DNA of 64,000 nucleotides from Escherichia coli. Its GTDB lineage: Bacteria > Pseudomonadota > Gammaproteobacteria > Enterobacterales > Enterobacteriaceae. Position numbers: made by a program. Every line of letters begins with the position of its first letter. The first letter of the stretch is position 1. This document shows positions 21,001-54,000 of the stretch, in pieces. The stretch is taken from the NCBI RefSeq assembly GCF_030013595.1, contig NZ_CP122768.1. One strand, written 5' to 3'.

Positions 21001-24000
21001 TCACCTTTGATCAAAAACGCCAGACGCTTCACCTCCAGTTGCGGGCTGCTAACTTTGCCAGTTTCGACAAACTGCGTAGTGCACTGGCAACCGATTATGT
21101 TGTGCAACAGGACGCGTTACAGAAAGAGGGTGATGCGGTTTCCGGCGGCGTAACGTTGCGGAGGAAATAACATGTTACGCGATAAATTTATTCACTATTT
21201 TCAGCAATGGCGTGAACGCCAGTTAAGCCGTGGCGAACACTGGCTGGCACAACACCTGGCGGGGCGTTCTCCGCGTGAAAAGGGCATGTTACTGGCAGCG
21301 GTGGTGTTCCTGTTTAGCGTCGGATATTACGTCCTCATCTGGCAGCCGTTGAGCGAACGGATAGAACAACAGGAGACAATGTTGCAGCAACTGGTGGCGA
21401 TGAACACCAGACTGAGGAGCGCCGCGCCGGATATTATTGCGGCGCGAAAATCCGCCACAACAACGCCTGCGCAGGTATCGCGGGTTATCAGTGACAGTGC
21501 TTCCGCGCACTCGGTAGTCATCAAGCGGATAGCCGAGCGTGGGGAGAATATTCAGGTCTGGATAGATCCGGTGGTGTTTAATGACCTGCTGAACTGGTTA
21601 AACGCGCTGGATGAAAAGTATGCGCTGCGGGTGACACAAATTGATGCCAGTGCTGCTGAGAAGACTGGGATGGTGAATGTGCAGCGGCTGGAGTTTGGAC
21701 GGGGGTAAAGTATCAGGAGATTAATATCAATAAAATTACTCTCGTTAACGTGGCGAGAGTAATTCCCCCAGACTTTATAAGCTAATTTTTTTCGTGAAGG
21801 TTATTGTCAGATCCAAAAGCAAAAACCCGCCTTGTGGGCGGGTTCTTAAGAATTAGTGGTGCCGGACTCGGAATCGAAAATTTCTTTTATCATATTGATA
21901 TTAATATAATTTATTTGGTTTGATTAAAAATGTACCCTCAATTATACCCGCAGTCCCTTTTGATATCGAAAGGGAATCACACTCGGGATCAGGCTGAGAG
22001 CACAGAAGGAAAGTACCTGGCTATTATATCGTTAATTCTGTCAATCAGTTCCAGCCTTTTGAAAGTGATGTGTGCAGATCCCTTCTTAAAGTATTTAATG
22101 ATGAACATCTCGTCTTCATAGCGCTCTTTACCCTGAACGGACTGGATGTGACCATCCAGACGAATAGTGATGTTTTCCCGGTTGTCGGGGATCGGTTTGC
22201 CGCTGAACAGATGTAGCATTCTTTCCAGGTCGACGAGTCGGTCAGTCTGTTGCCCGGTGATAAGATGAAACCCCCACCGGTCCCACCTCACCAGGTTGTT
22301 GACGATAATTTTACTGCCAAATTTGCAGGGGCAATTGGTTTTGTAATTCCAGCTCAGTCCCCTGAAGACGTTGATCACCCCTCGCTCAAACACCTCATCC
22401 TTGTTCTGGTGTAGTTGTTCAAATGTGCTCAGAATGTTCGCTTCACTGATTTCCGGAAAATTATCGTACTCCAGTGACCGGTACCATGTATCACGGGCCT
22501 GTGCATCCATTAAGGAAAGCATCCCTGAACGTTGCATCAGGTCACGCCAGATTTCGCGATCGAGATTGCGTGTGATGGCTTTCATTGCGGTTTCCGGTTT
22601 CTCCATCAGCCAGCAGCCGCAGCGAAAATCCTGTTTCATGGCCCAGTCCGGGGCGGTTTTGCCGCCAATGCCTGCTGTCAGCACTGAGATTTCTGCCAGT
22701 TGCCGGATAAGCGTTTCGGTTTGTTGCAGTGCTGCATTCCGTACCGTCACAACGTGTTGGATACTGGTGGAGCAGATAACGTCCGTATGCCCGGTGACCA
22801 CTTCCGGACGGGAGATTGTGATGTCTGACATTATCGGTTTTCCTTTTGGTTTATAAACGAAAACGCCAGCTGTATTCAGGCTGGCGTCAGGGGAATGAAG
22901 TATGGTGAGTGATATTCACCGGTTCTGGTGCAGAAGCTGCAGATGACGAAGAGCACGGACATCCTTCCGGGCCTGTTCGATGCAGGGCAACAGTGCTGCT
23001 GAATCCGTTCTATCCTCATCGTTGTCAAAGATAATTCCCGATTCGCAGTCGATATTGTCCTGTAGCCACGCAATCAGAATATCCAGTGCGGTTTCCGTGG
23101 TTAATGATTTCATGTTGTTTCTGGTTACCAATCGAAAGTGGGCTGGTCCGGCAGACATTCAGCGCTGGCATCCAGATGAATAAGACTGACGCCATAACGT
23201 TGGATGAGTGTGACAACCAGACGACGGAACGTTTTTGACAACCCCAGGCGTTTAAGCCGCAGAACCGGATATGACCACGCATCGGTACGTAACAGATACC
23301 CTCTGCCTGTGAAATGAATCCATTCTGATTCACCGAAGTCACTGGTCTGGTGTGACAGCGAGTACAGCCAGGCGTTATCCTTTTCCGTGATATGTGCGGT
23401 ACTGCAGCGTATGCCGGCAAGGGTTGCAAACGGTGGTAGTGTGCAGGTTGACTGTTGGTCGGATTCCTCCACCACGCGGAGTGAATAACCGTTTTCAGCG
23501 ACCTTGTTAATCAGTTCAGTGAGATTAACACCATCGACATCAACGACAATTCGCCCCATGTTCAGTGCCTGCACATTAATGCTGTCGGCTTCCAACGTCA
23601 GGGCCAGTTTCATTGTTTCGCCTCCGGATGCTTCCCCTGGGTAATGTTATTTACCGTTCTGTAGTTATCGCGGGTCATCAGGCCGGTTGCCCTGCGAGCC
23701 CGGAGAATATCAATACTGTTTATTAACTGAGAGCGGGTACAGGCGCTGAATCCCGGCTGGTCGGTACGTACCAGTGCGTATTTTTCAACGAGAAAGTTCA
23801 CCGCATCACACAGTGAAATGCCAGCTTCAATATGCTGCTCAATCACACGTTCATCGGCGAACGGTGTGTCATTCAGCGTAAGGCCGTAATGCTGGTCCAG
23901 CAACCGGGACAGCAGTGTCTGCCAGATGGTGACGGGAGACGGGCAGCGCGATGCCTCCCGTACGTGTGTGTCGGGTAATGTTTTCATACTGAAGATTTTC

Positions 24001-51000: not shown

Positions 51001-54000
51001 CCACAGCATCGCGGGACCACAAACCTGATTCTATTAATGCACTACATGCCATCGCCCGGAATCCATGACCACAGACATCCTGGGTTGTGTCATACCCCAT
51101 AACCCTCAGGGCTTTATTTACGGTGTTTTCACTGATTGGTTTACGTGGGTCATGTGCTCCCGTAAAGATCAGACCATTTTCACCTGCCCATGTCTGAAGT
51201 TCTGCCAGTATGGCTACAGCCTGTTGGCTGAGTGGCACAAGATGTGGTGTTCGCATCTTGGAGCCCCGGTATGAAAATTTTACGCCTGGCAGAGGTTCGC
51301 GTTCGGCTGGAATAGTCCACATGGCATTGTCAATATCAATTTCAGACCAGCGGGCATATCTGAGTTCACTGGAACGAATAAAAACCAGTAAATTCAGCAT
51401 AACTGCCAGTCGGGTGACAGGCTGGCCTTTATAACCGTCAATACGCGACAAAAGTTCAGGCAGGCGAGAAAGATCAAGAGCGGGGCGATGCTGGCGTTTT
51501 ACAGTGGTCAATGCACCAGCCATATCCAGAGCCGGGTTATATCTGATGATGCCAGACTGTACGGCATAACGCATTACAGCAGATATTCTTTGCTGCAGAC
51601 GACTGGCGATTTCATAAATTTGTTTAGCTTCTGCAGCACGAACAGGGATAAGCAGGTCCGGGGTACTGAGTGTTGTGATATCCCGGTTGCCGATAAAGGG
51701 GAAAACGTGTGTCTCGAGGCTTTTGAGTACTTTATCGCTGTGTGATTGTGCCCATTGTTTATTACTGGCATGCCAGCGTCGTGCAATATGTTCAAAAGAG
51801 AGTTGTAAATCAGGGACTACTTTTTTAGCTCTTTTCTGTTCGCAAGGGTCAACCCCCTCCGAAATCAGTTTTCGGGCCTCATCCCGTTTTGTACGAGCTT
51901 CGGAGAGAGAAACTTCCGGATACACACCAAGTGCCAGGGTTTTCTCCTTACCCAGAATACGATAACGGAGACGCCAGTAACGGGAACCATTAGGATGAAC
52001 CAGCAGGAACATGCCGGCCCCGTCAGTGAGTTTATAAGCCTTGTCAGTGGGCTTTGCAGCCCGGATTTTTGCGTCAGTCAGTGCCATAGTTCAGCCTTCT
52101 GAATGCGTTAAAGAGGGTACAAATTCTGTCGAACTGGGGTATACCCGCAATTATACCCACACAATGGGGTTGATGTGGGGGGAATCTGGTTGAGTTCGGT
52201 AGAATTGATTTGGAGGCAGAACGCTTAAATTGTGGCGTTCTGAAACGAAAAACGGACCTCCGTGGAGGTCCGTTGATATGAATTTGGTGCCCGGACTCGG
52301 AATCGAACCAAGGACACGGGGATTTTCAATCCCCTGCTCTACCGACTGAGCTATCCGGGCAACGGGGCGCATTAAACCTGATTCGCCTCGTCTCGTCAAT
52401 CAAATTTCTTCAATTTACTGCAGACTGCACAATCTATCATCACTTTGCCGCTAATGCACGCATTGTCAGGCAAACCAGGCGGTCCAGGCGGCGGAAAGCG
52501 GCATTGCCAGAAGGAGTGCTGGAAGCATGTTGACCACCGGGAACATTTTAATGCCACAGATGCGTAATCCGGTTGCCAGCAGCAATAAACCGCCTACGGC
52601 GCTGAAGTCTGCCATCATCGACGGTGTGGTCAGCGGTAATATCAGCGTGGCAGCCCACGCCAGCGTTAACTGGATGATCAGTAATGGGATACTAATCACC
52701 GATACCGCAATACCCAGCGAGCAGGCGAAGATCATCGCCGTAAAGAAATCAAGAAATGACTTGGCGATTAAAATACTCGGATCGCCGGTCATCCCTTCGT
52801 TCATCGCCCCGAAGATCCCGGTGCCGCTGGCGCAAAACAGGACAATAATCGCGACATAATTCTGAATAAAAGATTCATGCGCTGGCTTCTTACGTGAGTG
52901 GCGAAACAGATTTTGTGCTTTGGTGACCGCGGTATTGACGCCTTTTTCCAGCAGACAAATTTCGCCGATTAATGCACCGAGTAAGGTTGCTAACACCATC
53001 GCAGGAAGGTTGGCGCATTTCACCACCAGTAAAATACCAATCCCCAGCGATGCCAGACCAAAAATTGATGTCATGGAGACGCGGATACGTTCCGGTAAGC
53101 GTTGGCTAAGGAGTGCACCGAGAACGCCACCCAGTAATACTGCACTTGCGTTGATAAAAGGACCGATGACCACAAGAGTTCCTGTTAGCTGCATTATCTG
53201 ATTTTCTTATTATGAACGTTTGGCACCTTCGATGGCTTGTTTGTTCGCAAAGTCCTGGCTTGCACGCTCTGGTGAAAGGTGCCATGATTGCGCGAATTTT
53301 CTCCTCTCTGTACGGAGTTTGCCCGATGCACGCCACCTCCTTACATTCTCTCGCTTATCGCCGTTTCGCGCGAAACTCCTCCCCTTTTCTGCTCATGCGG
53401 TGAAGTTAACGCACGCTCACTGCAGGACAACAGTAAAATCAGAGCGTTTCTGCTTTTACTGATGTCTGGCGGTCGGAGCTGGTGACCAGTTTGACCCATA
53501 TCTCGTGGGGCAGGGTTTTTCACCTTGTCCGGTATTCTTACTTCCCCGAAACGGGTTTTGCGCTTATGAAATCAATGAATATTGCCGCCAGTAGTGAACT
53601 GGTATCCCGACTTTCTACTCATCGCCGCGTGGTGGCGTTGGGAGATACTGATTTTACGGACGTCGCGGCAGTCGTCATTACCGCTGCGGATAGTCGCAGT
53701 GGCATTCTTACGTTGCTTAAGCGCACCGGTTTTCATCTACCGGTGTTTTTGTATTCCGAACATGCTGTTGAATTACCTGCGGGCGTTACGGCGGTAATCA
53801 ATGGCAACGAGCAGCAGTGGCTGGAGCTGGAATCCGCAGCCTGTCAGTATGAAGAGAATTTGCTTCCACCGTTTTATGACACGCTGACGCAGTACGTTGA
53901 GATGGGCAACAGCACCTTTGCTTGCCCTGGACATCAACATGGTGCGTTCTTTAAAAAGCATCCTGCCGGACGCCATTTTTACGATTTCTTTGGTGAGAAC

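Follow-up and report, generated by a model that had tools for sequence, protein, structure and literature searches.

A 30.5-kb genomic island at pheV in Escherichia coli: attachment sites, short core alleles and a degraded BREX locus

Introduction

The pheV locus of Escherichia coli has been surveyed in 2,383 RefSeq genomes by Nhu et al. (PLoS Genet 2024; PMC11537424), who found islands of the GI-pheV family in 52% of them. The family is defined by pheV together with an adjacent intP4, the sole conserved gene of islands that are otherwise modular and include flu and yee modules. Among the 41 islands tabulated, none has a perfect 23-bp distal repeat and 15 have the distal repeat TTCGATTCCGAGTCCGG-CACCA (their Table 1); the same short repeat bounds islands of differing integrase alleles and cargo, and islands without a distal repeat are smaller (PMC11537424). 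Here we analyze 64,000 nucleotides of E. coli contig NZ_CP122768.1 (RefSeq assembly GCF_030013595.1), referred to as the window, in which a preliminary description had placed an island of about 30.5 kb between the type II secretion locus and tRNA-Phe. This region (21857-52360) is, with high confidence, a genuine 30.5-kb member of the GI-pheV family: pheV lies between yqgA and the island, an intP4 gene adjoins it (94.5-98.7% identical to its counterparts), a repeat of the pheV end stands at the far side, and strains free of the island exist. A textbook hotspot of integration, pheV had been named as such in the preliminary description. The published TTCGATTCCGAGTCCGG-CACCA is the reverse complement of window positions 21857-21878, and the island family, the integration site and the exact imperfect repeat were all known before (PMC11537424). 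Particular to this copy are a rare pglX allele, an IS903B deletion that appears to have killed its BREX system, and a frameshift in a GTPase gene, and our survey of attachment sites goes past the publications cited here.

The likeness of the window to GI-pheV extends from the site, the adjacent intP4 and the identical distal repeat to the flu and yee modules and to erosion by insertion sequences (IS); the difference lies in the cargo, which in the published islands comprises fec, pap, iuc, sat and type VI secretion genes and in the window a truncated BREX type 1 system (PMC11537424). Pathogenicity island (PAI) V of uropathogenic strain 536 occupies the same pheV site with a P4-type integrase and has the same backbone order from the zinc-ribbon genes to DUF4942: a zinc-ribbon pair, a Gp2-type protein, Hha, a 263-aa protein, an AlpA-like protein, a GTPase and Ag43, followed by DUF932, an antirestriction protein, RadC, YeeU, CbtA and DUF4942. 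It differs in bearing pix fimbriae, pgt and sugar-utilisation genes in the cargo slot, in its length (48.8 kb) and in its integrase gene, which is 95.3% identical to that of the window. A shorter version of this backbone is present in REL606. Annotation was transferred from relatives, each gene being mapped back to the window and checked for intactness; Z1323CEC0005 (CP148474) is 97.7% identical to window 9908-44947 and B1 (CP157955) 98.8% identical to 46693-64000. The pheV islands of these two strains, 97.7-98.8% identical to ours overall and collinear with it on both sides of a deletion described below, differ in retaining brxA, brxB, brxC, a full pglX, a BCCT transporter gene and IS1, and in having another pglX specificity region.

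Attachment sites and the island-free locus

ARAGORN detected one tRNA gene in the window, tRNA-Phe(GAA) on the minus strand at 52285-52360, which is intact as first described (Rfam score, 68.3 bits) and has its 3' end toward lower coordinates. The last 23 nt of this gene, pheV, form the proximal attachment core (52285-52307), and the repeat at the distal attachment site, which Nhu et al. call attR, lies at 21857-21878. The distal copy is 22 nt long, i.e., the end of pheV minus one C, the imperfect match that had been noticed earlier: it reads TGGTGCCGGACTCGGAATCGAA, and the tRNA 3' end reads TGGTGCCCGGACTCGGAATCGAA, with a CCC run reduced to CC in the distal copy. From the distal repeat to the far end of pheV the island measures 30,504 bp, with 30,406 bp between the repeats. 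Its neighbors are the core genes that the preliminary description had named, with gspL and yghD (gspM) on the left, ending at 21708, and yqgA and speC on the right of the tRNA gene.

The 15-mer GGACTCGGAATCGAA, common to both repeats, occurs at two sites only in the 64 kb when up to two mismatches are allowed; shuffled sequence gives an expectation of 0.09 matches, and two matches appeared in no shuffle. A scan of the window with the whole 23-mer and up to three substitutions returned the tRNA copy only, because the distal copy differs by a deletion, and the window has no third copy of the core with up to three mismatches. We then built an empty-site construct by removing the island and fusing two 700-nt pieces, one from the left of the distal repeat and one starting at the tRNA 3' end, and searched it against 5,426 complete E. 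coli genomes. A collinear empty site, annotated gspL-yghD-tRNA-Phe-yqgA, is present in 1,488 of them, and in strain H10 the construct matches base for base over the junction, the left flank passing directly into an intact tRNA gene. More than 1,300 genomes have the repeat next to this same island arm, and at least 25 have a perfect 23-nt distal repeat with the same arms. The repeat at 21857-21878 is a real product of attachment-site recombination, and the island-free site, proposed earlier as a check, exists.

The arrangement would follow if the island, in circular form, had been inserted into the 3' end of pheV by a P4-type tyrosine integrase. With the island would have come a second copy of the 23 terminal nt, which would keep the tRNA gene intact at the integrase end, and the original 3' end would have been displaced to the far end, beside yghD. 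Next to the integrase, the island has a variable cargo slot, which here holds genes for an outer-membrane protein of the Hra/Hek/Tia family, a phosphoethanolamine-transferase homologue and BREX type 1; the conserved backbone comes next, with genes for zinc-ribbon proteins, for a Gp2-type protein and Hha and for a putative excisionase of the Vis/AlpA type, and the flu and yee modules follow. The island has decayed through a one-ended 11.2-kb deletion anchored on IS903B and through the GTPase frameshift, and an IS1 copy is present as a remnant.

The integration module

The gene adjoining pheV, intP4 (50822-52087, minus strand), is intact and encodes a tyrosine integrase of 421 aa, whose three domains (Arm-DNA-bind_3, Phage_int_M and Phage_integrase) and 55% identity to phage P4 Int over 410 aa (E = 1e-174) bear out its description as P4-type. 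At the nucleotide level the gene is 98.7% identical to that of the H10407 GI-pheV, which has been placed in the intP4.2 group (PMC11537424), and 94.5-96.2% identical to those of CFT073, 536, Sakai and 55989; the exact protein is encoded on 896 contigs. A second P4-related gene (34491-34697, minus strand), 17 kb away from that of the integrase, encodes an AlpA/Vis-like protein of 68 aa with 36% identity to P4 Vis (E = 2e-13) and a weak match to an excisionase domain. In P4, Vis is both the excisionase and a regulator.

The likeness to P4 includes the architecture of the attachment region. In both elements the core is a tRNA 3' end situated approximately 150-200 nt upstream of int (197 nt separate the integrase start codon from the core in the window, and about 150 nt in P4), and the candidate arm repeats of the window have a spacing similar to that of the P4 repeats. 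The attP reconstructed from the two ends of the island has a tandem pair of ATTATACCCGCA-like 12-mers in each arm, at distances from the core near those of the annotated P4 arm repeats: the left pair, AATGTACCCTCA followed by ATTATACCCGCA, is at 21929-21952 (plus strand), 51-74 nt from the core, and the right pair, GGTATACCCGCA followed by ATTATACCCACA, is at 52138-52161 (plus strand), between the integrase start codon and the core. The placement is suggestive of arm-type integrase sites, for which we regard these 12-mers as candidates; the window as a whole contains nine ATTATACCCGCA-like matches against 4.6 expected, a count that is not significant. The two elements differ in their target, which is leuX for P4 and pheV here, in the P4 replication and helper-exploitation genes, none of which is found in the island, and in the sequence of the arm motif, which is unrelated.

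Short pheV alleles in other genomes

To survey the short form of the core, we used hybrid queries in which the 22-nt repeat replaces the tRNA 3' end of an island-free site. A 255-nt version of the query has exact matches in three genomes and a 90-nt version in 11. In nine complete E. coli genomes without the island, pheV is 75 nt long, one G being missing from its 3' acceptor strand, and equals window positions 21857-21878 joined to 52308-52360; with one acceptor pair broken, its Rfam tRNA score falls from 68.3 to 55.2 bits. These nine genomes represent at least five right-flank haplotypes, with 11-76 differing sites in 2.3 kb, and four different left contexts, and their haplotypes are interleaved with those of intact and of island-bearing pheV loci. 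Two further strains, SI-NP020 and Br_112_kylling, have at pheV an SPI-7-type conjugative element (ParA, dnaB-PI) and, by the chromosome flank, a displaced 49-nt tRNA fragment (locus 2542-2590) without the same base, and therefore the element entered a site that was already short. The short allele was found in a tRNA-Phe adjoining an integrase arm in none of 5,291 genomes, which argues against an assembly error and against ordinary mutation of the tRNA gene.

The 75-nt pheV thus has the appearance of a scar left by excision, with damage to the acceptor stem. On the simplest account, the strands would be exchanged between the T loop and the missing base when the island is excised, and pheV would receive the decayed, displaced end. 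A parallel can be drawn with PAI II of strain 536, whose excision from leuX reportedly truncates the tRNA gene (Blum et al. 1994). In both cases island loss may leave a damaged tRNA gene; at leuX the gene is truncated, whereas at pheV the damage would consist of a single base missing from the acceptor stem, a defect that the short distal repeat seems to have passed on.

A junction at another tRNA locus conflicts with a simple T-loop crossover as the account of these scars. At the far end of the pheU island of CFT073, beside cadC (locus 4450-4471), an attP-type junction joins an integrase arm, the short core and a DUF4942 arm, and adjoins a 160-bp integrase remnant. The attP-type pheU junction recurs in 1,254 genomes, mostly with the short core and in a few with an intact 23-nt core. 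Given short-core attP junctions on the one hand and perfect 23-nt distal repeats on the other, one mutation and a fixed one-sided crossover cannot yield all of the observed configurations. The base may lie within the strand-exchange overlap, gene conversion may occur between yee modules, or the base may have been lost recurrently. Our attempt to place the strand-exchange point from the distribution of short alleles gave conflicting answers, in that the scars and the fragments displaced by conjugative elements put it on the T-loop side and the pheU attP junction puts it at the acceptor end.

A tentative proposal, which we consider doubtful, is that the short core records the turnover of islands at pheV, with a damaged tRNA gene favoring re-occupation of the site and islands being retained through tRNA repair. 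Upon excision of an island with the short repeat, the defect would pass to pheV, and a later integration, either of an island with a P4-type integrase or of an SPI-7-type conjugative element, would restore the tRNA gene. If true, such retention by tRNA repair would account for one short repeat bounding islands of varied integrase alleles and cargo. The attachment-site survey offers natural evidence of excision by these islands and makes it a testable idea that excision damages pheV.

A BREX locus truncated beside IS903B

The degraded defense locus that the preliminary description had recognized is a BREX type 1 system reduced to two intact genes and part of a third, all on the minus strand. 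Intact are brxL (39322-41406; TIGR02653, 1343 bits) and pglZ (41417-44014; TIGR02687, 1260 bits), neither of which has internal stops; the third is a 3' fragment of pglX (44191-46692) that covers positions 404-1210 of the 1210-position PglX profile and has lost about 380 N-terminal codons. Of the six-gene set (brxA, brxB, brxC, pglX, pglZ and brxL), all members are present in the relatives Z1323CEC0005 and B1. Alignment with B1 places the breakpoint: homology ends at 46692, within pglX, and resumes at the left end of an IS903B copy (46693-47749; 1057 bp) that has perfect 18-bp inverted ends and no 9-bp target duplication. The missing segment, directly beside IS903B, is 11,161 bp long (B1 locus 7722-18882), and with it were lost the approximately 380 pglX codons, brxC, brxB, brxA, a hypothetical gene, the BCCT transporter gene, a DUF2254 fragment and IS1A. 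In Salmonella PglX the motif I GxG that binds S-adenosylmethionine is at residues 315-317 (PMC11341690). The window fragment, which begins at profile position 404, is without a complete methyltransferase domain (motif I GxG, motif IV NPPY); because it starts past motif I, no active methyltransferase is possible. From its gene complement we predict that the system is dead, being no longer capable of methylation or defense.

The right junction of IS903B is identical in the window, in B1 (18883-19939) and in E89 (28856-29912), and the left junction is a different one in each of the three. The element is present at this site in 17 genomes, with left junctions that vary and without target duplication; the exact junction between the pglX fragment and IS903B is found in none of the 5,426 complete genomes. 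In E89, IS903B abuts glcA, and the rest of the island, sslE and the entire type II secretion (gsp) operon are missing. This pattern is what repeated one-ended (adjacent) deletions leave when they start from one anchored copy, and a single IS903B has in this way produced nested deletions of very different extent across strains. Such deletions offer a mechanism for the smaller GI-pheV islands that have no distal repeat, and the window provides a fully mapped example of an island-borne defense system inactivated in this way.

The middle of the pglX fragment (44948-46127, 34% GC) has no match at the megablast level to the alleles of the closest relatives and corresponds in position to the target-recognition and spacer region, as judged from published PglX domain positions (PMC11341690). 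It is probably a swapped specificity cassette, and the window allele of pglX occurs in only one other complete genome, CDE2901-yvys (CP170179). BREX genes lie within the pheV island of at least 27 complete genomes; in a census of E. coli defense hotspots, yghD/yqgA (tRNA-Phe) is hotspot 5, and BREX is listed at hotspots 1 and 37 only (PMC10121019).

Composition and mosaicism

Of the preliminary description of the island as mosaic and largely AT-rich, the first part holds and the second is an overstatement. The island has 48.6% GC against 53.2% and 50.8% in its flanks, and its segments range from 54.3% in the yee/flu third (21.9-31.2 kb) through 47.9% in the BREX remnant and 46.4% at the integrase end to 43.1% in the center (31-39 kb); the AT-rich parts are this center and the patch within pglX.

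Divergence from relatives is similarly uneven. Compared with Z1323CEC0005, the gsp flank is 4-5% divergent, with 20-35 differences per 500 nt, up to 21786, after which there is one difference at 21894 and none from 21895 to about 26000; further on, the genes for Ag43 and the GTPase are about 3% divergent, the center is nearly identical, and the BREX genes differ by about 2%. Compared with B1, there are seven differences in 46693-52284, and the yqgA-speC flank diverges from 52454. No more than about 100 nt from either attachment site (21787-21894 and 52285-52454), divergence accordingly changes from 2-5% on the chromosomal side to about 0% on the island side, and the island blocks are therefore much younger than the surrounding chromosome. 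Both compared strains have the same short distal repeat as the window.

Mobility and alternative readings

Excision of the island appears plausible, because, apart from one missing base, the island retains an intact integrase gene, an intact Vis-like gene and its two attachment sites. Genes for phage structural proteins, primase, relaxase or type IV secretion are absent from the transferred annotation and from the family scans (oriT was not searched for), and movement between cells would therefore need a helper or homologous recombination.

Several observations weigh against reading the region as an intact, mobile GI-pheV island. The distal repeat is imperfect, and genomes with a perfect copy do exist, at least 25 of them. 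The blocky pattern of identity makes the island a recombinant mosaic and not one clonal unit. Excision and a circular form, for which a junction PCR had been suggested, would lie beyond the reach of sequence alone. The assignment of arm sites leans on a motif whose count over the whole window is not significant, the 499-aa transferase homologue scores below every substrate-specific cutoff, and three backbone proteins match no family.

The alternative that fares best takes the island for a fixed fossil, its integrase and attachment sites being relics and its spread having been vertical or by homologous recombination of large fragments. The missing base of the distal repeat, the association of the same short repeat with different integrase alleles and cargo, the mosaic of blocks with differing divergence and the ongoing IS-mediated erosion would all fit such a history. 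However, the reading frames of the integrase and the Vis-like protein are intact, divergence switches about 100 nt from both attachment sites, which is unexpected if the endpoints were those of random homologous recombination, nine island-free genomes hold the short repeat allele in pheV as excision would leave it, and PAI V of strain 536 is reported in a review to undergo excision (PMC7545054). We thus consider a fossil possible and, on these grounds, unlikely.

That the 30.5 kb might comprise two or more elements, in tandem or nested at pheV, seems improbable. The block structure of identity, the tandem attP-type junctions at pheU in many genomes and the 17 kb between the Vis/AlpA gene and the integrase gene could be read in this way; against it, no third core copy appears in the window at two to three mismatches, there is a single integrase, and the order of the backbone is the same in PAI V of 536 and in REL606. 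An internal attachment site dividing tandem islands was looked for in the window with up to three mismatches and rejected. A P4-like phage satellite or degraded prophage is a very improbable identity for the element: its Int and Vis are homologous to their P4 counterparts, but neither the transferred annotation nor the PHROG and NCBIfam scans yielded homologues of P4 alpha primase, sid, psu, delta, cI or epsilon, or any capsid or tail gene. Finally, we dismiss as next to impossible a chance origin of the 22-nt repeat, with the region being ancestral DNA that other strains have lost, since the shortness of the repeat is all that speaks for it, and the mismatch scans, the shuffles (0.09 matches expected), an empty site that joins exactly at the repeat, the more than 1,300 genomes that share the repeat together with its island arm and the identity of the repeat to the published attR rule it out.

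Remaining gene content

The island most probably belonging to GI-pheV carries, nearest to the distal repeat, a yee (CP4-44-like) module on the minus strand (21989-26699), in which all open reading frames (ORFs) are intact and 99-100% identical to annotated RefSeq genes: DUF4942 (21989-22831), DUF957 (22916-23113), DUF5983 (23125-23613), the CbtA toxin (23610-23987), the YeeU/CbeA antitoxin (24077-24445), DUF987 (24524-24745), RadC (24814-25290; 160 bits), an antirestriction protein (25305-25790; phrog_10132, 211 bits) and DUF932 (25881-26699). The genes for CbtA and CbeA (YeeV/YeeU), a type IV toxin-antitoxin pair, are adjacent and without internal stops; an NCBIfam scan returned no match for the pair, and at the nucleotide level they are 100% identical to RefSeq genes of the CbtA and YeeU families. 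The antirestriction gene is likewise 100% identical to a RefSeq-annotated gene, and the toxin-antitoxin and antirestriction genes reported at the outset are thus present.

The flu gene that follows (27026-29872, minus strand) is intact, without internal stops, and its identification as the adhesin Ag43 is secured by a score of 1988 bits against the Ag43/Cah autotransporter equivalog model NF033177 (cutoff, 1200). Upstream of it, a match on the minus strand to the IS102 (IsrC) small-RNA family is located at 29891-30127 (RF00124, 68.1 bits against a gathering score of 46). The adjoining YeeP-like GTPase gene (30244-31115, minus strand) is a pseudogene with internal stops: its alignment to the intact 873-nt gene of Z1323CEC0005 has one gap, a 1-nt deletion near 30452 that shifts the frame in the window copy.

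The central AT-rich backbone (31225-39057, 43% GC) comprises eight genes and an IS1 remnant (33425-33571). On the minus strand are genes for hypothetical proteins of 339 aa (31225-32244), 190 aa (33833-34405) and 263 aa (35080-35871), along with that of the AlpA/Vis-like protein; on the plus strand are those for Hha (36827-37039), an inovirus-Gp2-type protein (37271-37870) and two zinc-ribbon proteins (38252-39057). The 339-, 263- and 190-aa proteins received no useful assignment from Pfam, NCBIfam or PHROG, and a PADLOC search of the backbone hypotheticals for defense genes gave only one marginal match (E = 0.003). An AT-rich stretch of about 1.2 kb (32245-33424) has ORFs of 61 aa at most and is unannotated in relatives. 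A second AT-rich stretch, of about 0.95 kb (35872-36826), has no ORF longer than about 60 aa and is likewise without annotation in relatives.

Between IS903B and the integrase gene are two cargo genes on the plus strand. The first (48101-48841) encodes an outer-membrane beta-barrel protein of 246 aa (Pfam OMP_b-brl, 4e-22) of the Hra1/Hek/Tia family, whose 90%-identity cluster has members named Hra1, Tia and Hek, in line with the Hek-like adhesin of the preliminary description. The second (49001-50500) encodes a phosphoethanolamine-transferase-family protein of 499 aa, with Sulfatase (3e-36) and EptA_B_N (5e-5) domains that suit the envelope-modifying enzyme proposed there. Its best NCBIfam match is CptA, at 105 bits against a cutoff of 404, and assignments as EptA, EptB, CptA or MCR were rejected, every score being far under the curated cutoff. 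Remnants of the same gene adjoin the integrase gene in CFT073 (locus 3290-4291) and in H10407 (locus 1793-1867), and the transferase gene is therefore old island backbone that has stayed intact in the window. Outside the island, the C0719 small-RNA family has a full-length match at 2755-2976 (294 bits), in core DNA that lies upstream of the secretion genes, as is ordinary for E. coli.

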